64,000 bases of DNA from Mytilus californianus (taxonomy: Eukaryota), in NCBI RefSeq assembly GCF_021869535.1, contig NW_026262679.1, positions 92,839,982 to 92,903,981 on the forward strand. Reading direction: 5' to 3'. Each line of letters begins with the position of its first letter. Positions within the stretch are counted from its first letter, which is position 1. A program made the position numbers and the translations under genes. This document shows positions 7,301 to 57,500 of this stretch, one piece after another. The notes beneath the pieces were generated by a model that saw only the letters and a list, made by a program, of their open reading frames with translations, was not told the origin of the DNA and did not search any database.

Positions 7301-10300
7301 TCCTTTTATTATTTGAATCTTTCATGTTGCTGTTTATAGGAGAGTTTGAAGTTTAGTCATATCAGAACTAGGGACAGGAAGATCTGATAACCTTTTGTAA
7401 GACATTTCTGTTCCTGTCAATATATGGTCAAATGCTTCATTCTTTTTGCAGAAACAGTCTGATTTCATTGTACATAATTCTTTTGTGTGCTTTTTGTTAT
7501 TCAACTGGCGAGCATTAAAAAATATGGAGGATTGAGATCATTTAAAATATAGCTTTAACCTACTAAATGTTCATGTGCCTCTCAGAAACCTCATCAGTGT
7601 TTGTCACATGTTTGCCAATGTGATACAGCTCCACAAATGACTTCGTTACATATCCTCAGATAAGGGATATGTTTCCAATGTTCAAATATTCTATAAGGAA
7701 TTATTACTTTATATTTTAAATAGCACATATAAGGGGACACTGCCTATATGTATAAATTGTATTCAACACTTAATATTACTGGAATATAGAATCCTGGACA
7801 ACATCATGATTCTGCATAAACTGTTACTTAAATGGATAAGTTCTTGGACATTTTTCGTTCAGTAGGGAAGTCATTGAAATTGTTATGATCTTCATTTATT
7901 TGTAATTATGACTGTTTATAAATTTTTCTTTGTATATACATTGTTTTGGTATACTGGTGAAATTGTATAAATGTATACAGCTTTAAGCATTACATTTTTA
8001 TATGAAAATACTCAAATAGTTCATTGTCATAATTCAGCCCTGCAAGGAATAAATACCTGGATTTATACTCTTTCATGTGAAATAGTTGCACAGAATTAAC
8101 AAAACTTGTAATTTATTTGAAATGTACTGTATAGTATTGAATTTGAGTTTGACTCTTTTAAGCCATACATGCCAAATAATACACTAATACACTATACATG
8201 CCAAATAATACACTACATTCAGTTGAAGGTTTGATATCTTCCGAAGGCTACAAACACATATTTTACTATAGATCTTCAAGGTCATATATCATATATACTG
8301 TAGTCACCGTTATTTGCAGTGTACCTTTTTTTTTTGTAATTCAATAATAGGTTAAGTGACTATCAGCATGATCAGCACATACAGTATAAGTCAGCTGTAG
8401 GTATTATGTTGTATTTATATTTACACATAGTTCCTGGTTGTTTTTTTTTGGCCTACATGTGCTGGAATAAATCATTTTTTTTCAATGGGTTGGAATTAAG
8501 ATACATTTTAAATCTTTTGTAATCAACTGAGTTTTTTTTTTTTGTGTATAGAAGCCCAGTTTTGATGTTTTCAAATGTGAAATCCATATGAACAAGCTGA
8601 TTGAAATTTATAGGTAATGAAAGCGTGACAATCAGGACATTAATAAAAGTGCTTTTAATTTGAAGAAAATAAGGTGCATTGTATAAATGCTCGTGCATTG
8701 TTCTATGCATCTACCGTACAGTTCCAGCATGTGTGTTAGACATTTAATATCTGATTTTATTGTCAAGCATACCGGTATATAATCATCATTTAAAAATAAT
8801 TTGTTATTTAATTTACATTTTTGAAGACCTTGAAATTATTTAAATAAAATTTAACATGTTTATAATTTGCCTTTTAGATATATAACATCTAGACAGATTT
8901 CCTGGCGGCAATATTTTGAAATTATTTATTCATGATAGTGACCTATACCTTCAGGCGCACAAAAGTTTTTGTAAGCTATCAAAAAGTTTCATGTTAAGAA
9001 TTTTCCTGAAGTTTGTTGTGACCAACTACCGTAAAAAAATTAAACCTTTTTAAATGTCACCAGTTTCATAATATAGTCTGGTAAATTTGTTTTATTTTCT
9101 AAAAATAGCTTAAATATGATATATTTATGAGACATTAAGCTTAAGTTATTTGCTACTAGTGTTAAAAGTTATTTGCCACTAGTGTTAAGAGTTGTTCATA
9201 TGTTCATGCATCAGACTTAAGCTTTTATTTGACACTAGGAACCGCAATGAGTTTATTCACAAAATGTAGTGATAACATCATGAAATCGAAATGCAGACAG
9301 TAAATATAAGAAGATGTGGTATGAGTGCCAATGAGACAACTCTCCATCCAAGTCAAAATTTATAAAAGTAAACCATTATAGGTCAAAGTACGGTCTTCAA
9401 CACGGAGCCTTGGCTCACACCGAACAGCAAGCTATAAAGGGCCCCAAAAATTACTAGTGTAAAACCATTCAAACGGGAAACCAACGATCTAATCTATATA
9501 TAAAAAACGAGAAACGAGAAACATTTATGAACCACATCAACAAACGACAACTACTGAACATCAGATTCCTGACTTAGGACAGGTGCAAACAATTGCAGCG
9601 GGTTTAAACGTTTTAATGGTACCAAACCTTCACACACAAAATGCACACATGTGGCTGCATGGATATTTTTTTGTGGGAATTGCAAAATTGCACAAATTTA
9701 ATAATGATAATATGATTCTATATTAAAAAAGTGTAGCACATTTTAGGCTAGTCTTACAACTAATCTTCCTGGAGTCCCTCATGAAATACAGTACAAAAAA
9801 ATAAAGCATGGGGAAAACAAGAACAATCATGATGATTGGTTTATTTTGTTGCTTGCTTTAGTCCAATGAAAATAGATCCTGGAGGAATCCTCACACAACT
9901 ATAATTATGTAAATTGTATGATCCTGCAAGGGCAATTGATATTGACCTAAGGATAGAATTTACTTAAAGTCATTAATAACCCTTTGATTGCTGCTGGTAT
10001 TCAGGGGTTAAAAACCGTAGAGTGCCAAAAGCTTAGCTTTTGATTTGAAAATTAAATTGGAAAATGTCATAGATCTTAAAGGAAGCATATCAATTGTGCA
10101 AATTCAATGTTTGCCATCTTGAAGAAGTTCTGCTTGGATGGATGACGGGTGTTAGCTCAATTACTTTACTGACCTTACTTTTTTTTTTAAATTGATTATA
10201 GTAACAGGGTTGCAAAAAGGGGTCCTGATCCTTAAATTATTAAAAACTTTTTAAAAATCTACAGATAACACATTTTGTTGACAATGACTTTATCCTACAC

Positions 10301-41493: not shown

Positions 41494-42693
41494 TTTTTTT
41501 CTTTTATTCTCATAAAGCCAATGCATTACATCAGTACAGAGATAACAACAATAACTATTTACAATATATACAAAACAAGGAGAGAGGTTACAGAAGTCAC
41601 TAGCCAGGAGGACAAACAAAAGTATTAACATTTTTTATAAATAAACAAAATTTCTTCAGGACTGGTTTTCGTGTACTCGACATAAGTTCCGAGAATTTAA
41701 ATGTATTATGTCGTTGTACAAAATAGGAGGATAAATACTCTGTACGTTTTTGGGCGAAAAAAGTACATTCAAATATATAGTGATATTCGTCACCAATTTG
41801 TCGATTGTTACATTGATGGCAAACACAGTTTTCTCTCAATATATTTTTCCTGTTTCAATCAGCAATTTGTTATTAGTTGTTCGAAATCGACAAAGAACAA
41901 CGGCATCTTTAAAGTCCAAAATATTAAAATATTCCTCAAATTCCCAGTTTTTCTTAAAAATTTTGTAGTTTATAGCTTTTGATGAATTTTGAATAAGGGA
42001 ATTCCAATTCTGAAGAAACTGGTCTAATAATCTTTGCTTTATAACAGTTTTTAACCAATCTTTATCTATAAAATTTTGTGTTTCCCATATATATGAGAAA
42101 CCACGATCTTGAAATATTTTTTTGACAAATAGAATCCATTTATTCTGCATGTTATAATGAGCATTCATATGGCGAGAAAGTTGATACAATATAAAGGAAA
42201 ACTTTGCTTGTTTGCCGGAAATCAAATTTGCCCAAAATAATACTGCTTGAACTTTTATATCTATGTCAACCGGATGGCGACCTAGTTCCCCGTAAACCAC
42301 ATAATTTGGTGTTGAGGATTTCAGATTTAAAAGTAATTTACAGAATTTTAAATGTATCTTTTCTAATACCTCATTATTACTAAAACCCCATACTTCGCAC
42401 CCATACAACAGAATGGGCTTGACAATTTTGTCAAAAAGATCTAGCTGACATTTTATGGAAAGCTGATACATCCTTCCCATTTTCAGGACTTCGTACATGG
42501 CTTTTAAGGCCGTATCGGATAAATGTTTTTTCGTCATATTAAAATTCCCTGTTTTAGTAAAAATAATTCCCAAATAGTTAAACTGCTTTACTATCTCAAT
42601 GTTAGTGTCATTGTAAGAAAATCTGAGATTTTTTGGCAAACGTCCAAAACCAAACACTAAAGCTTTGGTTTTGTCAACGTTTACTTTCAATTT
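41494..42693 (-). mobile_element. 5'-truncated non-LTR retrotransposon (LINE) inserted in the 160-bp repeat array. It retains the C-terminal RT (thumb) region and a CCHC-type zinc knuckle, and has a short poly(A) tail, seen as tttttttt at 41494-41500 on the + strand.
   Basis: The minus-strand ORFs at 41836-42759 and 41600-41839 carry RT-like C-terminal motifs. The tail 'CHQCNNRQIGDEYHYIFECTFF' fits the C-x2-C-x~12-H-x4-C pattern of CR1/L2/RTE-type LINE ORF2 ends. The 160-bp repeat 'ctctgaaattatacc' stops at the poly-T and resumes at 'accacaagtttgtataccacaaaggga' at 42694. The first 25 or so residues of the 307-aa ORF are repeat-derived read-through. Confidence 0.75.
41600..42680 (-). pseudogene. 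LINE ORF2 fragment (RT C-terminal part plus CCHC), 5'-truncated, with one frameshift between 41836 and 41839
   Basis: Two overlapping ORFs in different frames. There are no N-terminal RT motifs (Y/FxDD is not seen) and no endonuclease, so it is a dead copy. Confidence 0.7.
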
Positions 42694-42924
42694 CCAAACC
42701 ACAAGTTTGTATACCACAAAGGGATGGTTAGGATTTGCTTTGGGAGGGTTATGACTCAAACTGTTTAGGAATTAGGGGCAAAAAACGGGGAAAAACAAGG
42801 GTGTCCTGGTTAATGGACAAATACTTTAGTACAAAACATAATTTAAAGCAGTGTAAGGGAGGTAATTCAAATAATGGTTAATGAACAATTAAGACAATTT
42901 AAAAGCAGTGTAAGGGAGGTAATC

Positions 42925-49140: not shown

Positions 49141-49716
49141 ATGAGCAAAACATTGTATTTCTCTCATACTAAAGTATCAATAAATTCACATCAAAAGGAT
49201 TTAGTGTAAGACGTCATAAACAGGCCGACAAGCAACAATAGTTAGTTATGTTTTTAATTTATCAAAAACAAAATCAAGTATGTACCTTCTACAACAATAT
49301 TAAAAAAATCTTATTATGGTGTGTTAAATTGGTATCCTTATTTAAAGGACCAAAGAGTATTCTTATTTTATACTTGTACTTGTCACAAACTTATTGCATG
49401 TAGTTTATATGACATTAAACATTTGCATTAAAGAAAAAAACTAATTCGACTTGCTGACCTTCTTCAGTTAAACGTGTTGAAGATTATCAATAATTAAAAA
49501 GCTGTTACACGATTATGCACTTAAAAGACTCAGTTGCACTTCACCTGCATATTAACATAACATGTCAATCACATGTCCTATGGCGTTTAAAACAAACAAT
49601 GCTACTGTTATTGGTTTAACAATAACGTCATTCTCGTGCATAAGACTTGCATCACAGTCAAGTAGTGCAAATGAATCCAAATGTTTCCTTCGGTTTAAAA
49701 TATATATATATATATA

Positions 49717-50430
49717 TGTTTAGTCTAGGTGGCCGAATGGTCTAGAGCGCTTGACACAGTGCAGGCGGTGTTATCTCGATATCCCAATAGCATGAGTTCG
49801 AATCCCGGCGAGGAAAGAACATAATTATTTCTGTGACTGCATCATACGATCCTTTAGTACAGATAACTTAGCTAATCTGCAATCAATTCCATCTTTATGC
49901 CTAATATATCATGTACTGTGTTACAACTCTGGATTCTACAGACGAGGAAAGGTAACACTAGGCCACCGAAAGCTGAATTTTTAGTTCAATCTAGGTGGCC
50001 GAGTGGTCTAGAGCGCTGGACACAGTGCAGGCGGTGTTGTCTCAATATCCCAATAGCACGAGTTCGAATCCAGGCGAGGGAAGAAAAAAAAATGTGCTTC
50101 CGCAAATTTACAGATCTAACATTGTTGGGCTGTTATTTAGACGAATTATGTATACAGAATGTTTTTTTCAGCCTTGCATCACCATCACTGGTGATCCGAT
50201 GGATAAAATTTGTCGTAGAGTTGTCACTGGTTCAGACGTACTTATAATATAATTATTTCTGTGACTGCATCCTACATTAATTTGTAAGATCCTCTACGAT
50301 AGATAATTCAGCAAGGCGATTTGGTGCCACGATATCTCAAGTAGCACGAGTTCGAATTCCGGCCAGGGAAGAACAAACAGATCTAACATTGTTGGGCTGT
50401 TATTTAGACGAATTATATATATAAATTGCC
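49717..50430 (+). mobile_element. Tandem array of about 2.5 units of about 267 bp of a tRNA-derived SINE-like sequence. Each unit has a tRNA-like head with an A box 'TGGCCGAATGG' and a B box 'GAGTTCGAATCC', then a tail 'ataattatttctgtgactgcatc...acagatctaacattgttgggctgttatttagacgaattat'.
   Basis: Heads are at 49719-49815 and 49986-50085, and a partial head at 50330-50365. The pol III box consensus is read directly. The acceptor stem does not pair, so these are not functional tRNA genes. The ORFs at 49897-50247 and 49995-50252 are artefacts. Confidence 0.65.
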
Positions 50431-50462
50431 TAACAAGGTAATTTTAACACACTATTGAGTAT

Positions 50463-50760
50463 GTAAATATTAGAATATTACAGCCGATTTCATTGAGTGT
50501 GTAGGCAAAGGTAATATCTTTGGTTAGCTTGCTTGTTAGCTGAACCGTGAAGTCATTATTAGGTCAGGTATACTACCCTCCTTTCGAAGTAGCCTAGTCC
50601 AACAGACAGATAGATTGGTTATCCGTCGGACTAGTCTACTCTTAAAGGAGGGTAGTTTACCGAACCTAATAATGACTTCACGGTTCAGCTAGCAAGCAAG
50701 CTAACCAAAGATATTACCATTGCCTACACACTCAATGAAATCGGCTGTAAAAATATTTAC
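50463..50760. mobile_element. Near-perfect foldback element with arms of about 125-140 bp ('cagccgatttcattgagtgtgtaggcaaaggtaatatctttggttagcttgcttgttagctgaaccgtgaagtcattattaggt...') and a centre near 50614
   Basis: The arm 50481-50603 is the reverse complement of 50625-50747 with only a few mismatches. It lies immediately 3' of the PLE on the - strand. Confidence 0.8.
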
Positions 50761-51001
50761 AATGCGATAAAAAATAAACGCAATATTTCGCTAGACAAAA
50801 TAGCTTCATCAAGCGTGCGTCTATCCAGGTGAAATCGGATGTAGATAAGAAACTTTTGCAGCTCGCTGTACATGAATTTCGCTGCTTTGTAAAGAATTCA
50901 AAATTTGGATGAAGTTCAAGATTATATATTTATTTACAAAATTGGTTTTCAACGTCCATTGGCCAATATTACAGGATTAAAAGGACTTGCTGTTCACTAA
51001 A

Positions 51002-51340
51002 TTATTCTTTATCTTTCCTGTATCTTTTCTCGTCTTTTTCATTAAGCCCATCAGGTTCTAAAGTGTGGAGCTGGTGGATCCAAAAGTCTTCTCTTCTCCT
51101 TCTCGCCGTGGTGTCCCACTCAGTGTTTACCTCTATTATTTGGAAAGTAACATTATCAAAAGGATGTTTCTTTGAGCGAAGATGTCTTGTGAGAGGACAG
51201 TTTTTGTTGGTTTTGTACCATGAACGATGGTTTTTTAGCCGAATATTAAATTTGTCCATTGTTTCTCCCACATACTGAATGCAACAGGTCTTACATGTTA
51301 ATATATAAATTGAGTTCTCCGTTTTACAGTTGGAATTTGA
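51002..51340 (-). pseudogene. GIY-YIG endonuclease domain of the PLE
   Basis: GIY is present as 'SIY', YIG as 'YVG-ET', followed by 'R.K.H' and the 'E..I..L.T..P.GLN' tail, all read from the minus-strand translation. The track ORF 51002-51271 begins at an internal GTG. Confidence 0.75.
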
Positions 51341-52017
51341 GTAGATGGTATAACTTTGTTTTGTAAAGGAGCCGATGAAAGAACTGCTTGTATTGGCAGC
51401 TTTACAACATAAGCAATTCCTTCTCCCACATTGTTTGTAGCAACCGGGAGGTGGAGTTGGTTGCTTTGTTTATACAGCTGTCACTAATTTGTCACGGATG
51501 TTTTTAGGTCCGCTGAAGGCCATGACTGGTGGTGAGAAAAATACTTTTTTTTAAATTGGAGTCATTTTCTAGAATGTTCCAATGCTTTTGAACAATGGAT
51601 GACACATTTTTAAAATCAGGATGGTAAGTCAGTACAAGAGGAGTTCTGTTGACTCCTTTGCTTACTCCAGAAGTTCTGTTTGCTTTTTCGAAGACTGTAT
51701 CAATGCTGTTGTTATTGTATCCTCGAACAACAAGATGTTTACGTAGTTGTCCAAGTCTTGCATTTTGCTTATTTTCGGTTGAGCATATTCTCTTGATTTG
51801 CAATGCCTTGCTGAATGGGATACCACGGGAGCAGAGTTTAGGATGGCAACTTTTTAGGAGAGAGAAACTGATGTCTGTCCGTTTTTTTCGTATGGAGATC
51901 CGTTATAATGGTTCCGTTCTGGATGTAACTCATAGTATCAAGGAAGTTCATTTTCTCCATTGATGTTTCGTGTTTAAATTTAATTAAATGATGGAAAGAG
52001 TTACAGTGTTCTAGAAA

Positions 52018-52620
52018 TTAAATCAGATGGTCTTGTGAATCTGTCCATTTAAAATCAATATCGTCAATAAATCGAAACCATGATAATGGCTGGTATGGAG
52101 CACTATCCAAGAGGCGTTTCAGAAGTGTAACAAGGCACTCAGTTGGAGGATTTTTGTCACTAAGAGTGTTCCATACCTCTTCACACGCCGCTATTCCTTC
52201 GTCTTGTGGAATGTTGGTATATAAAGAAGACACGTCCATGGATGCTAGTATGGTATTGTTTGGTAGAGGATTAAGGCTTTCTATTTTCTTTAAATAATCA
52301 GTCGTATCTTGAATGTAAGAGGGTAGTTCTTTAACATGCGGTCTTAAGTGATGGTCTACGGATAATTTTTCAGTTGGGTGACTATTCGCTGAAACAGTAG
52401 GTCGACCTGGATTGCCAGTTTTGTGTATTTTAGGCAACATATAGAATCTTCCAGCCTTTGCTTCGTTCACAAGAGGTCGACGATATTCAAAGGTGTCATT
52501 ATCGATATGCTTTTGGTCGTACATCTCTTGAAGGGTGGTGTTGATCTTTCGAATGGTAGTTTGTGTTGGATCTGTGGTTAATTGCTTGTAAAATTGGAGT
52601 TTGACAGTTGACGATTCCAC
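52018..52620 (-). pseudogene. RT domain fragment of the PLE (motifs 1, 2, A and C)
   Basis: The 200-aa ORF carries 'LPKIHK', 'RPTVS', 'DVSSLYTNIP' and 'FIDDI'. There are only about 45 residues between motif A and motif C, so motif B is deleted. The upstream continuation is in another frame. Confidence 0.7.
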
Positions 52621-53219
52621 TTAATTTGCTATGTAATCTGTTTTATTCATGACAACCACAGCGCCCCCTTTGTCTGTAGGTTTTATTACAATACCCTCTT
52701 GTTCTTTTAACGCTTTCAAACGATGCTTTCTGACTTGGATAAATTATAATTTCTCTTATGTGTTATGCTGGATTTTATATCAGACCTCTCGTAGTTAATA
52801 AATGACTCCAAGTTTTCGTTTTTACTTTTTGGTGGTTTCCATGAACTTTTCTTCCTAAATTTTGGGACGGGCGTGACTTTTTCATTGTCCTCAGTATCTG
52901 AATCTGTTAATCCGGCTTCTTCAAGCTGTTTCTTGTCTCTATTGTAGAAAAGACGTTTACGTTTGAAAGATTTATATATATATTGTAACGATCTGGGGTT
53001 TTCTTGTCAGGATATACCCGTCGTTACTTATGTGGGCCTCTGGTGAAGGAAGTAATAATAAACATCATATTGGAGTTCATAAATTGTATTAATACTATTA
53101 TTTCTGTTTAAGCAATACAACAAATACAGTGGTTCATAAAACCAAATACGTTAATAATATATACAATAAGTAATACAGCAAGGTGCATTACTTGCACCAA
53201 GCTAATAAAATAGTTCTTC

Positions 53220-53470
53220 TAGCGCTCGATGCAAGAAAATCTACTTGGGACACGGCATTCTAATATTCTGCATACTTGGTGCAGGAAAATCTACTTGGGA
53301 CACTGCATTCTAAAACTCTGGATACTTGGTACAAGAAAATCTACTTGGGACACTGCACTCTAATACTCTGCGTACTTGGTACAAGAAAATCTACTTGGGA
53401 CTCTGCATTCTAATACTCTGCGTACTTGGTGCAGGAAAATCTACTTGGGGCACTGCGTTATAAAACTCTG
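53220..53470. repeat. Minisatellite of about 4.5 units of 60 bp ('gcaagaaaatctacttgggacactgcattctaatactctgcgtacttggt')
   Basis: Read directly. The units diverge at only a few positions. Confidence 0.85.
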
Positions 53471-54347
53471 CATACTTAGTGCATGGTTAGCGATTTACCC
53501 GAGCAAACAGTACGTCAGCATTTTTATATGAAGACTTGGTTAATTATCAAGTCTATTAAATAATATCACCAAGCACTTTTACTTGGTGCAGCAAATTATA
53601 ATTTGAGAGATACTGCTAACTGCATGGAGGTTCTTGGAGAGAAGCTCCCAGTAGGAACATGCGTTCCGTATTTTAAACAAAATCGTCGTTACGTGTGACG
53701 TAATACACAAGTTATTCATAAACAAGAACAGGAACACGTAACGTTACATTTGGCGCGTTATACTGAAACTAATTATAAACAAATACAAAATGAACAACTA
53801 CACACATAAATTAAGTCGATATATAGATTTAAAGAAGTCAGTATATAATGTAAGGTTCAGGTAAGCTATTTCTTCTGTAAAATACGCCGAAACAGAACAC
53901 AACAACGGACATCTGCATGTACCAAGTGTGGAACGGAGACCACAGTGATAATATAAACACATCTATCTTGTTTACACAAGTTAAACCACAGTAAAATTAT
54001 CAGCTTTCAAATCACTGGGGCGTAACAATATATATATATATGAATAAGGAGGTGTTAATTGGTATACGTCAGTAAGGACACACAAAAACAACAGAAAAGA
54101 CACATCTAAAGAAACGTAGAGGTTGATTTACGTGAGCTACAATTACAATTACAATATTACGTGAAATGCTATCTAGAGGTCGACGTCTTCAATAATAAAT
54201 ACATTTCTTTATCATGTATTAAGCTCTATTTAATTGCTCGGAATTTAAATATAACGAAAGACAACCCCTAACAATGTTCCTGACTTGAAACAGGCACTTT
54301 GAGATAATGCAAATAAAGATCGTTTATAGAATATAATATCAGTATTA

Positions 54348-54588
54348 GAGCTTATTTCCTAATGCTTGTAGATTGAATTTTGGTTGGCTTGCTTGCTTTG
54401 CTTGTATACATTGTATGGATGATATCCTGGAGGTTAGGAATCTAAATATAATATATACAGGTTTAACTCCGCCTATTTATATTGTATGCAGATGTCAATC
54501 TTAATTACAATGCTTGAGAAAACATTCATCCACACAAAGCAAGCAAGCCAACCAAAGTCTTACTATACAAGCATTAGGAAATAAGCTC
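54348..54588. mobile_element. MITE-like element of about 240 bp with imperfect TIRs of about 50 bp ('gagcttatttcctaatgcttgta...ggttggcttgcttgctttg')
   Basis: The ends are reverse complements. The 'ggtt(a/g)gcttgcttg' motif is shared with the 50463-50760 foldback. Confidence 0.6.
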
Positions 54589-57500
54589 TAAAGATGTCCA
54601 AAACACAGGTAAAAATACAAGTAAAACAATGCAAAATAACTCACTGTATTAAAGAATGATCGAAATTATTGAAAGAAAGTTCTCACACTACTAAATCTGC
54701 TAGTATAAAAAACATGCCTTCTTACATACATATTCTAATATCGGTCACTTTACTTTGAGAGTGATTTCACACAGTAACTTAATGAACAGTGCAGAAAACA
54801 CGATACGGTGCAATTTCACCAAAAATAAAGTGTAGAGAATTGAAACATAAGTAGTTTGTAGTAGTATTTCAAACTCCCAGCCTCCCAGAAAACTAGTCAC
54901 AATGATATCAAAACAACCGTATATCTATAACATTTATCGATAATTCTATAAGTTTATTAAACATAAAAGATAGGTCTTATACTTGTTTCCTTTATTAAAG
55001 AATTGAATACTTCTTTTTATGATTTTATTGGATGTAAAGGGGTTGACCGAAACACATTGTGTATGACGCGGAAGCGCTTCATGTTAAAAATCGATCAACG
55101 CTTTTACAACCCTAAAAAGAAGAATTAAATTCTTATAATTACATTTTATACTACCACCATGAAAATTAATAGTTATATAAAGCTTTTGTTTTGTTTTACA
55201 ATGCACTAATTTAACATTGTCACGAATATCACGTGCAGCCATAGTTTTTGTATTTTATTTAGGAATTGAAGGATTATTGAGAAGCATTCAATTCGTATAT
55301 TTACATTTTTATGCTACAACCATGAAATTAAGAGTTATATCAAGCTTTTTTTCGTTTTTCTATGCATTGTTTTAGTTTTAACATTGTTACGGATAACACG
55401 TGCAAGCTGTTGTATTTTATACGGAAATAAAATATGATATTGGAGAGCCTCACGACTGTGGTCAGCCAATCAAAATAACGGATTTAAATGAAACATACAT
55501 ATAATGTAATATCATACGGAAACAAAATATGATATTGGAGTGCTTCGCGATTGCTGCCATCCAATCAAAATTACGGATGCTAACGAAACATACATGCAAT
55601 GTAATGTATTAATAAAACCACAAAAGTCTTCCTTTATAGAAATACCACTTTTATTAAATTCCTGAAAGTCAAATCATACTTTATATCAAATCCCTATATT
55701 TGTAATGAAAGTTCGTGTTCTATTTGTGACCAATTTATGTTATATGAATCCCGGTGGTTAAAATGATTCTATTCCAGTACAAGAGAACGCAACAAGTCCT
55801 ATTTGTGAACATCATGCGCATATAACATTTAGTTTATATATATGTACTGTATGTTTGTTGAATAGCACGTCAATCACTCAACAGTAAACACCCACGTCAT
55901 GCAGCAGCTGTTCCAAAGACATTAATATTCGTCACAGTTAACATGACGATGTTCGAACATTCAAATTATAATATTGACCTTTGCTGAATGTAAGCGAAAC
56001 TATTCTGAAATGTTTTTCTGATGTATTTTTTATATTGTGAAAGAAGTTTTGAAATAAAAATCAACGTTATACATGTATTATCAAGTTATAATAAACATAG
56101 TCGTACCCAGGTTGTACCTTGTCATCATGTATTACCGAGGTAAAGGTTTATGTGTCCTCATCACTCATTCCTTCATAGACACTGTACAGTACATTATTAT
56201 AAACATTTTTGATAAAAAATCTACCGAAGATATTTCTTGTCTAAATCAATTTTTTTTTCCTGTAAATACAGAAATGTCTGCAGTTTCTTGCAATAATTAT
56301 GAAATATATTTATGATTTACATTTTTGTGAAATCACTGTTTAAAGATCTTTAAATCTCCAACATTTGATATTTTTGTTTACAGGCAAATAGTTTGTTGTT
56401 GGAGAAAAGTGATTTTTTGGTAATAAGAATTAATGAAATTTAACTGTAAATGGAGTTACAGTAAATTCAGCTTAATTTAACTTTTGAATAAGATGACGGA
56501 TTAATTGATAGCTGAAAAAAAGTCAAAATTGAAAAACAAAATTCATCAAAGAATACTAATACACAAAGGAGTGTCAATGGTATAAAATGATCAACAATAT
56601 TAGCACTGATGGACAAATACACTACACAATCCTGAAATAATGCACAGGAAAATGTTTTAAATTGCTGACACATTAATAGTATTATACAAAAATATAAAAT
56701 CTTTAAGTTAAGCACAAAAAGTAAAATGTAAATGAGGTAAATGTCAGATGAACCCTGCCAGACAGACATGTACACTTTACAATCATACTATTCACCAAAT
56801 ATAGTTAGTCTATCCTATTGTTTTAATATAGTATCTGGGAAACATTTATAGAGTATAGTGGGGAAAGTAGCTTCTCTAGGTAATGTTAACGAATGCTCTT
56901 TTGGTGGAATAACGGGTAGCTGTCAGTAAAGAGTATGCCTGCTCACTTTTGTTGGGTAGTAGACCAAAAACGAGTTAGTAAATAGCTTCATAGACCATTG
57001 GGTTTATTGTGTAGAGTTGAGCAAACTGAGAATGGTACCCTCCAAAGGAGATGTATTAGTCCAATTTATTTAATATTATGGTCAATGATTTATTTTGTTA
57101 AATTTCACAATTTACAAATGACGGTGCTATATGGAAATCAGTTTCATGCATTAAGTTTTTTTTCAAAAAAAATACAAGACTAGATAATATATGTAAATGG
57201 TTCTCTGAAGGAAGTTTTAAAATTTCTCCAAGTAAAAACTGTTAGGAAATTAACTAGAAGGAAAAATATATATCCTCACAACTTGGCAAACATATATTAG
57301 AAACGGTTTTAAGCAGAGGCGGATTTAGGGGTGGGGCAGGGTTAGTTTTTGACCATGTCTTTAAAAACTGTGCTTTATATGAAATAATAGGGAAATTTGG
57401 GATATATGAAACACCTTTGACCTAAGACTAGATATTTTGCAAATGAAATAGAGTTAAAAGTTTGATATTTAAACAGGATCGAGGAATAAAAAAAATAAGA

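Follow-up and report, generated by a model that had tools for sequence, protein, structure and literature searches.

We analysed a 64,000-nucleotide stretch of the Mytilus californianus genome (NCBI RefSeq assembly GCF_021869535.1, contig NW_026262679.1, positions 92,839,982 to 92,903,981 of the forward strand; the whole stretch is hereafter called the window and numbered from its first letter), in which a Penelope-like element (PLE) with a GIY-YIG endonuclease lies on the minus strand near two palindromic elements, foldback 1 and foldback 2. We found that the region is very probably a stack of independent transposon insertions, in which the foldbacks are neither part of the PLE nor needed by it. 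The original prediction had considered two other origins. It allowed that the foldbacks might be the PLE's own termini, and this idea was refuted, as the 15 family copies or fragments that span the site of foldback 1, from three Mytilus species, carried no foldbacks. It also allowed that the foldbacks had trapped the PLE, which does not agree with the nesting of foldback 1 in the PLE 3' untranslated region (UTR) and the location of foldback 2 in unrelated DNA. The features on which the argument depends are given below.

50414-50423, no strand: (TA)5 tract, the target microsatellite on the 3' side of the PLE, read from the sequence; other family copies also end on (TA)n
50425-50480, minus strand: last 56 nt of the PLE 3' UTR, split off by foldback 1 and ending ...AAATTACCTTGTTAGGCAAT at 50425 (blastn, 85-92% to Mytilus 3' termini)
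50481-50747, no strand: foldback 1, a 267-bp whole-length palindromic element resembling a miniature inverted-repeat transposable element (MITE), with ends CAGCCGATTTCATTGAG.../...CTCAATGAAATCGGCTG (inverted repeat I1), absent from paralogous copies
50748-51001, minus strand: proximal part of the PLE 3' UTR, including the hairpin arm 50753-50761 (alignments to L001-L006, L017 and L018)
51002-52950, minus strand: decayed PLE coding region with stop codon at 51002-51004 (79% protein identity to P0001, 88-90% DNA identity to L001)
52951-52973, plus strand: 23-nt inverted PLE piece (L001 alignment)
52973-52983, no strand: (TA)n tract at the PLE 5' junction, the target microsatellite on the 5' side (sequence; inverted repeat I5)
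52986-54027, no strand: non-PLE segment of ~1.04 kb between two (TA)n tracts (52973-52983 and 54028-54041), containing a minisatellite delimited by TRF
54348-54588, no strand: foldback 2, MITE-like and 241 bp long, its ends being GAGCTTATTTCCTAATGCTTGTA (inverted repeats I2 and I3)

Identity and decay of the Penelope-like element

The minus strand holds a degenerate, old PLE with a C-terminal GIY-YIG endonuclease and without motif B of the reverse transcriptase (RT). Three-frame translation of this strand (53050 to 50900) showed PLE motifs scattered across the three frames, including a DKG motif (KPTDKGGAVVVM) upstream of the core RT, LPKIHK, RPTVS, motif A (SMDVSSLYTNIP), motif C (RFIDDI) and an endonuclease segment reading SIYILTCKTCCIQYVGET...RLKNHRS...EPDGLNE. 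In order, the coding region comprises an N-terminal conserved region, the RT with motifs A and C kept, a thumb/helix-turn-helix region, a Zn-finger-like linker and the GIY-YIG domain with a CCHH motif. When the frames were stitched into a conceptual protein, the Pfam GIY-YIG model (PF01541) scored 25.2 bits (E=2.1e-5) against a curated cut-off of 22.6 bits, and the motif was also present on careful translation. A total of 2267 homologues of the stitched protein were found. The top one, P0001, was 79% identical over 99% of the query and contained both RVT_1 and GIY-YIG domains (Pfam); its cluster includes proteins from Mytilus edulis, M. trossulus and M. coruscus that are annotated as 'uncharacterized proteins', and all nearest relatives of the window PLE belong to the genus Mytilus. 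The PLE hallmarks and the endonuclease that had been read on this strand were therefore confirmed by translation, by the Pfam score and by the homology to P0001.

In an alignment with nine homologues, the window copy kept the catalytic R, H, E and N residues of the endonuclease as well as the complete CCHH, i.e., a CxxC between GIY and YIG and two His. Invariant columns present in the window translation were C80, C83, Y87-V88-G89, R98, H102, H117, H123, E148 and N164. Besides, a Zn-finger-like linker (CX2-5CxxC) was found between the RT and the endonuclease; the window reads CYKQCGRRNCLCC, and C40 and C43 were invariant across the nine homologues. This type of linker has been defined for Neptune/Nematis-type PLEs (PMC8557442).

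The copy is no longer functional. Its DNA identity to the Mytilus family (M. trossulus, M. edulis and M. coruscus) was ~88-90%, and global alignment gave 90.1% identity with at least seven frameshifting indels. A deletion of ~120 nt at 52116-52119 removed the positions corresponding to P0001 residues 327-367, including RT motif B (QIDGTSMGTKMAPSYAN). These results bear out the earlier description of an old copy with a broken open reading frame (ORF) and a missing motif B. The surrounding DNA is eukaryotic, AT-rich (GC 0.28-0.38) and repeat-laden, with no long ORFs except transposon remnants.

Boundaries and insertion site of the PLE

The window copy was delimited by comparison with seven genomic loci (L002-L006, L017 and L018) and one 2.4-kb contig (L001), all from Mytilus. 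The PLE spans 50425-52973 on the minus strand and is 5'-truncated relative to full-length units. L001 aligned to the window at 52951-52116 and 52119-50950 with 88.5% identity. The seven genomic loci aligned from 52951 to 50750 and then directly from 50479 to 50404 (blastn); that is, homology to the genomic copies stopped at 50750, resumed at 50479 and ran to ~50404-50414. The family terminal motif AAATTAC(A/C)TTGTTAGGCAAT was found at 50444-50425 with (TA)n behind it, and L005 and L003 show the same order. (TA)n was thus present on both sides of the element (50414-50423 and 52973-52983).

At the 5' junction, the 23 nt at 52951-52973 repeat, in inverted orientation, the stretch of PLE sequence that immediately precedes the truncation point: positions 205-227 of L001 match window 52951-52973 on the same strand, and L001 from 227 onward matches the opposite strand from 52951 down. 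This inverted piece is a small snap-back of the kind often left by PLE integration. Taken together, the window copy and those in L002-L004, L006 and L018 displayed the characteristic architecture of PLE insertions, with 5' truncation, partial tandems, an adjacent inverted copy and a microsatellite target. PLEs are typically found truncated and in tandem or inverted arrangement, and (TA)n targeting has been reported by Craig et al. in PLE clades with the Zn-finger-like linker (PMC8557442). Knowledge of the true 3' end of the family is also of use for annotation and helps to set the family boundaries correctly, as PLEs are often mis-delimited.

Compared with canonical PLEs that have a C-terminal endonuclease (Neptune/Nematis type; Arkhipova 2006; Craig et al. 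2021, PMC8557442), the window copy shares the CxxC linker upstream of GIY-YIG, the (TA)n insertion, the 5' truncation and the inverted piece at the 5' junction, and copies in related genomes share the head-to-head and partial-tandem arrangement. It differs in that the window copy is dead and in that no canonical hammerhead ribozyme was detected either in it or in intact Mytilus copies.

The truncation point itself was nearly identical (within ~3 nt, in a T-rich run; L005 6230-6233) in the window copy (52951) and in an independent M. trossulus copy (L003 5265). This common point may be a hot spot of truncation or template switching.

Foldback 1 is a later insertion into the PLE

Foldback 1 is an insertion that entered the PLE later and is not a PLE terminus, because the PLE sequence continues beyond it and 15 family copies are without it. 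It lies inside the 3' UTR, and 56 nt of PLE sequence separate it from the true 3' end. Its arms (50478-50606 and 50622-50750) are 129 nt long and 91% complementary, and the predicted DNA fold had an energy of -124.8 kcal/mol (z=-30). The element starts with CAGCCGATTTC and ends with GAAATCGGCTG, giving CAG...CTG ends, and is directly flanked by TA on either side (50479-50480 and 50748-50749). It contains no ORF of at least 40 aa. All 15 Mytilus copies or fragments that span the site (from M. trossulus, M. coruscus and M. edulis) were devoid of foldback 1. When foldback 1 and one TA (50481-50749) were excised, the window aligned without gaps to four empty paralogous sites, among them an M. coruscus copy of the older subfamily to which the window copy belongs; the TA target-site duplication was therefore checked against empty sites. 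Target duplications of the PIF/Harbinger (TWA) and piggyBac (TTAA) types were also considered and rejected, as the flanks TTA...TAA do not repeat each other directly, and the alignment became gapless only when the element and 2 nt were taken out.

Foldback 1 entered the PLE at the loop of a 9-bp hairpin in the 3' UTR (TGTAAATAT/ATATTTACA; window arms 50462-50470 and 50753-50761), which is present in every family copy. Because this hairpin flanks foldback 1, the palindrome appears to extend over 50463-50760. The near-perfect 300-bp foldback that had been described at these positions is thus a real palindrome, but one of 267 bp (50481-50747) with 91% complementary arms, and its outer 9 bp are the hairpin of the PLE. 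Likewise, the PLE is not bracketed by foldback 1 as had been proposed; its sequence continues past the foldback to 50425.

These data bear on the possibility that the foldbacks are terminal structures of the PLE itself, such as an unusual pseudo-long terminal repeat (pLTR) or inverted terminal repeat. In its favour are the inverted and tandem terminal arrangements known from PLEs (PMC8557442), the head-to-head pairs of this family in Mytilus (L002, L003, L004 and L018) and the motif common to the two palindromes. However, none of the 15 family copies in the three species carried either foldback, the PLE sequence runs 56 nt past foldback 1 to a normal family 3' end, 1.37 kb of unrelated DNA lies between foldback 2 and the PLE, and neither foldback showed similarity to any PLE sequence. 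The ends of other family copies, whose inspection had been proposed as a check, were found to be ...TTAGGCAAT or a form 98 nt longer, lying on (TA)n and free of foldbacks. We consider a terminal origin of the foldbacks exceedingly improbable.

Another explanation is that foldback 1 is not a transposon but a palindrome generated locally, for example by hairpin-provoked replication or repair. A palindrome over the whole length of the element, set precisely into the loop of a 9-bp hairpin that was already there, would fit such an event, as would the failure to find another copy in the window, the Mytilus loci, JGI metagenomes or a translated search. Yet the 267 nt are unrelated to the flanking PLE and hence are not an inverted duplication of local DNA; indeed, self-BLAST detected no similarity of foldback 1 to the PLE or to the rest of the window. 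The discrete CAG...CTG ends, the TA/TA flanks and the exact colinearity after removal also speak against local generation, and so do the positioned subterminal block and the similar ends that foldback 1 has in common with an independent element 3.6 kb away. A local origin therefore appears unlikely, and insertion of a transposon into the hairpin loop is preferred.

Foldback 2 and the segment next to the PLE

Foldback 2 lies 1.37 kb beyond the 5' end of the PLE, in sequence unrelated to it. Its termini are perfect inverted repeats, followed inward by a second, subterminal pair and by a core that is not palindromic. The terminal arms (54345-54370 and 54566-54591) are perfect over 26 nt when flanking bases are included (23-nt ends), the inner arms are 29 nt long with 90% complementarity, and the fold had a z of -10.7. 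The element is flanked by TA (54346-54347 and 54589-54590), with TA|GAGCTT...AAGCTC|TA as an alternative reading, and its only ORF has 43 aa. The distal MITE-like palindrome previously noted at 54348-54588 is accordingly real, but it does not bracket the PLE, being situated 1.37 kb outside.

With two TA-flanked palindromic elements that have a common subterminal block, lie 3.6 kb apart and flank most of the PLE, one could imagine a composite DNA transposon whose ends are the foldbacks and whose cargo is the PLE together with the minisatellite segment. This arrangement is highly improbable. Each foldback is complete and has its own TA/TA flanks, their ends differ and their likeness is limited to ~30 nt. 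Moreover, foldback 1 splits the PLE 3' UTR, so that the cargo would start partway through the PLE, and a second copy of the composite was found neither in the window nor in the Mytilus loci. Two separate insertions, each complete in itself, remain the preferred explanation.

The DNA between the PLE and foldback 2 includes the 1.04-kb segment at 52986-54027. A minisatellite in this region had been given a 60-bp unit and placed at 53220-53470; TRF instead reported a period of 50 bp and 5.1 copies at 53230-53483. The segment showed no homology to PLE proteins or Mytilus loci, and the idea that it is the missing 5' part of the PLE was ruled out by the lack of homology to full-length copies. It may be another (TA)n-targeted insertion, for which no homologue or terminal structure was found. 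A short internal tandem array is also found in tandem-repeat MITEs of bivalves, such as DTC84 of Donax trunculus (PMC3879986), which offers a lead for this segment and not for the foldbacks; unlike DTC84, the segment has no established terminal structure or homology.

Relationship of the two foldbacks

The two foldbacks share a block of ~25-30 nt, GTAAnA(T)CTTTGGTTrGCTTGCTTG, located at offsets 30 and 28 from the element ends. Its local alignment score was 38, compared with 18.8+-2.5 (maximum 28) in 300 shuffles, and its 16-nt core occurred nowhere else in the window. The common 'ggtt(a/g)gcttgcttg' core that had been noticed between the palindromes is therefore genuine and longer than stated. 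The termini are loosely alike, (C/G)AGCnnATTTC, and no further alignment could be made; the terminal sequences themselves differ (CAGCCGATTTC in foldback 1 vs GAGCTTATTTC in foldback 2). A relationship between the palindromes, as suggested earlier, thus has one subterminal block and the similar TA-flanked (C/G)AGC ends in its favour, but does not extend to any alignment beyond them, and is weakly supported.

Both foldbacks have the properties of MITEs, i.e., terminal inverted repeats, small size and no ORF of at least 40 aa other than the 43-aa ORF in foldback 2. Judged by these sequence features, the two probably represent TA-targeting families of non-autonomous DNA transposons with a distant relationship, and the shared block is possibly a transposase-binding site. 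From the TA duplication and the CAG ends we take them to belong presumably to the Tc1/mariner/pogo superfamily, and a Tc1/mariner-type transposase would have mobilised them. Like TA-targeting Tc1/mariner MITEs (Stowaway-like or pogo-derived), they are short (241-267 bp), lack coding capacity and have terminal inverted repeats, TA/TA flanks and strong hairpin potential, and foldback 1 also has the CAG...CTG ends. They differ from typical MITEs in that foldback 1 is palindromic along its whole length and not just at its termini, in that no autonomous partner or other copies were identified, and in that only the ~25-30-nt block is common to the two. Foldback (FB) elements of the Drosophila type likewise have long inverted arms capable of snapping back. 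FB arms reach kilobase scale, consist of tandem subrepeats and are accompanied by a 9-bp target duplication, whereas the arms here are ~130 nt without subrepeats and the flanking duplication is 2 bp. Bivalve genomes are rich in MITEs and Tc1/mariner elements (PMC10294476).

Several observations count against the interpretation of the region as a stack of independent transposons. No second copy of either foldback was found in the 64-kb window (self-BLAST) or in the eight Mytilus loci (~125 kb), and JGI metagenome contigs gave no match to the two-sided motif pattern and none to the 22-nt terminus of foldback 1. The mobile, multi-copy status of the foldbacks is thus deduced from insertion polymorphism among PLE copies, TA flanks and terminal structure. 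Besides, the young M. trossulus subfamily has AA at the empty site, and the target TA is reconstructed for the window lineage only. For foldback 2, the TA duplication would follow from its flanks alone, with no empty site to compare. Finally, the assignment of the PLE to the Neptune/Nematis type is based on motifs.

In other searches, ten IMG/VR viral contigs matched the shared 18-mer; all of them were without an inverted partner, and the matches were rejected as chance. Translated searches with a 50-aa stop-free frame of foldback 1 gave no candidates in the protein database.

Proposed order of insertions

We infer the following order of events. A canonical PLE would have integrated by target-primed reverse transcription into (TA)n at the end of a host repeat, and the copy would have been 5'-truncated on arrival, with the 23-nt snap-back formed at its 5' junction. 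It would then have decayed to ~10-12% divergence, losing RT motif B through the ~120-nt deletion and acquiring at least seven frameshifts. Later, foldback 1, as a 267-bp non-autonomous DNA transposon, would have entered at a TA in the loop of the PLE 3' hairpin and duplicated this TA. The 241-bp TA-flanked foldback 2 would have been inserted separately, 1.37 kb beyond the PLE 5' end.

The PLE family in Mytilus

M. trossulus copies were 98.5-99.4% identical to each other, and because of this identity the family appears to be young in that species. Family copies were often arranged head-to-head or in partial tandems (L002-L004, L006 and L018). Head-to-head inverted pairs of intact copies were seen in L002 (5879/5880), L018 (9071-10662), L003 and L004; the L002 junction was perfectly palindromic, and both arms had identical flanks.

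Two alternative 3' ends were found in the family, each followed by (TA)n: ...TTAGGCAAT|CTATA (after GGCAAT), or a position 98 nt further, ...GGCACTTATA. In tandem units, this 98-nt stretch continues into the 5' UTR of the next copy. The 3'-end sites examined were L002 8683, L003 8737 and 2744, L004 8750, L005 8750, and L006 2143, 6842 and 7609. One family copy ended on (CT)n. The two ends suggest that a terminally redundant RNA is primed through microhomology at its internal UAUA tracts, and their position next to (TA)n would be explained by annealing of the (TA)n target to such tracts. A broader proposal joins two parts: a canonical PLE lineage with C-terminal endonuclease that lost its hammerhead and primes reverse transcription by annealing of the (TA)n target to internal UAUA tracts of terminally redundant RNA, and foldbacks that represent an undescribed lineage of TA-targeting, whole-length-palindromic MITEs with a conserved subterminal protein-binding block. 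We regard this combination as tentative, with the chances somewhat against it.

With its ~99% identical copies, head-to-head pairs, pLTR-like redundancy, (TA)n targeting and lack of a detectable hammerhead, the young Mytilus family is possible material for studies of PLE integration. All of these features fit existing descriptions of PLEs, and their scientific value is small. We also observed that the ORF of the family likely starts upstream of the 776-aa NCBI models, at ATGGATAGCGCACAGCATTTC..., giving MDSAQHFKKLRSL... (seen ahead of the annotated ATG in L003, L004 and L006; e.g., L004 5560-6000). This start would probably match the N-terminus of the 915-aa homologue P0007.

Search for hammerhead ribozymes

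Hammerhead ribozymes are typical of canonical PLEs but not universal. Rfam detected no hammerhead in the window at the gathering threshold, none in 49500-55500 or in L005 at E<=10, and none in L003, L004 and L006 at E<=1. A custom scan for the CUGANGA-stem-GAAA core also revealed no hammerhead. Weak Rfam matches to microRNA families at 50561-50669 merely reflected the hairpin of foldback 1. The 3' UTR of the older subfamily (window ~50770-50805, minus strand; L006 ~7640-7700) contains CUUGAUGA-AGCUA...UAGC-GAAA, which resembles a hammerhead core with one extra U; at this degenerate site younger copies read CUUGAUAA, with no Rfam match. The degenerate CUUGAUGA...GAAA string may be a relic or a coincidence.

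Host repeat and other features of the window

The repeat that would have received the PLE is as follows.

49718-50413, plus strand: host repeat with units of 266-288 bp that have a GAGTTCGAATCC motif and a terminal TA-rich tract (direct repeats D3, D4 and D6)

The repeat lies directly 3' of the PLE in the window; with 72-81% identity, it also adjoined PLE copies in L003, L004 and L018, and the (TA)n tracts of this repeat are probably frequent landing sites of the PLE. ARAGORN and Rfam made no call that would point to a tRNA origin of the host repeat. Across the loci the repeat measures ~266-440 bp, and its GAGTTCGAATCC motif is tRNA box-B-like; it was observed within ~100 bp of PLE copies, in either orientation, at L003 8870-10613, L004 8858-10529 and L018 956-1673.

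Elsewhere in the window, an ORF of 307 aa (41836-42759, minus strand) resembles, by eye only, the C-terminal part of a non-long-terminal-repeat (long interspersed nuclear element, LINE) reverse transcriptase, and would be another transposon remnant. At 55118-55605, two short tandem arrays adjoin each other, one with 1.9 copies of 162 bp and the other with 2.0 copies of 95 bp.

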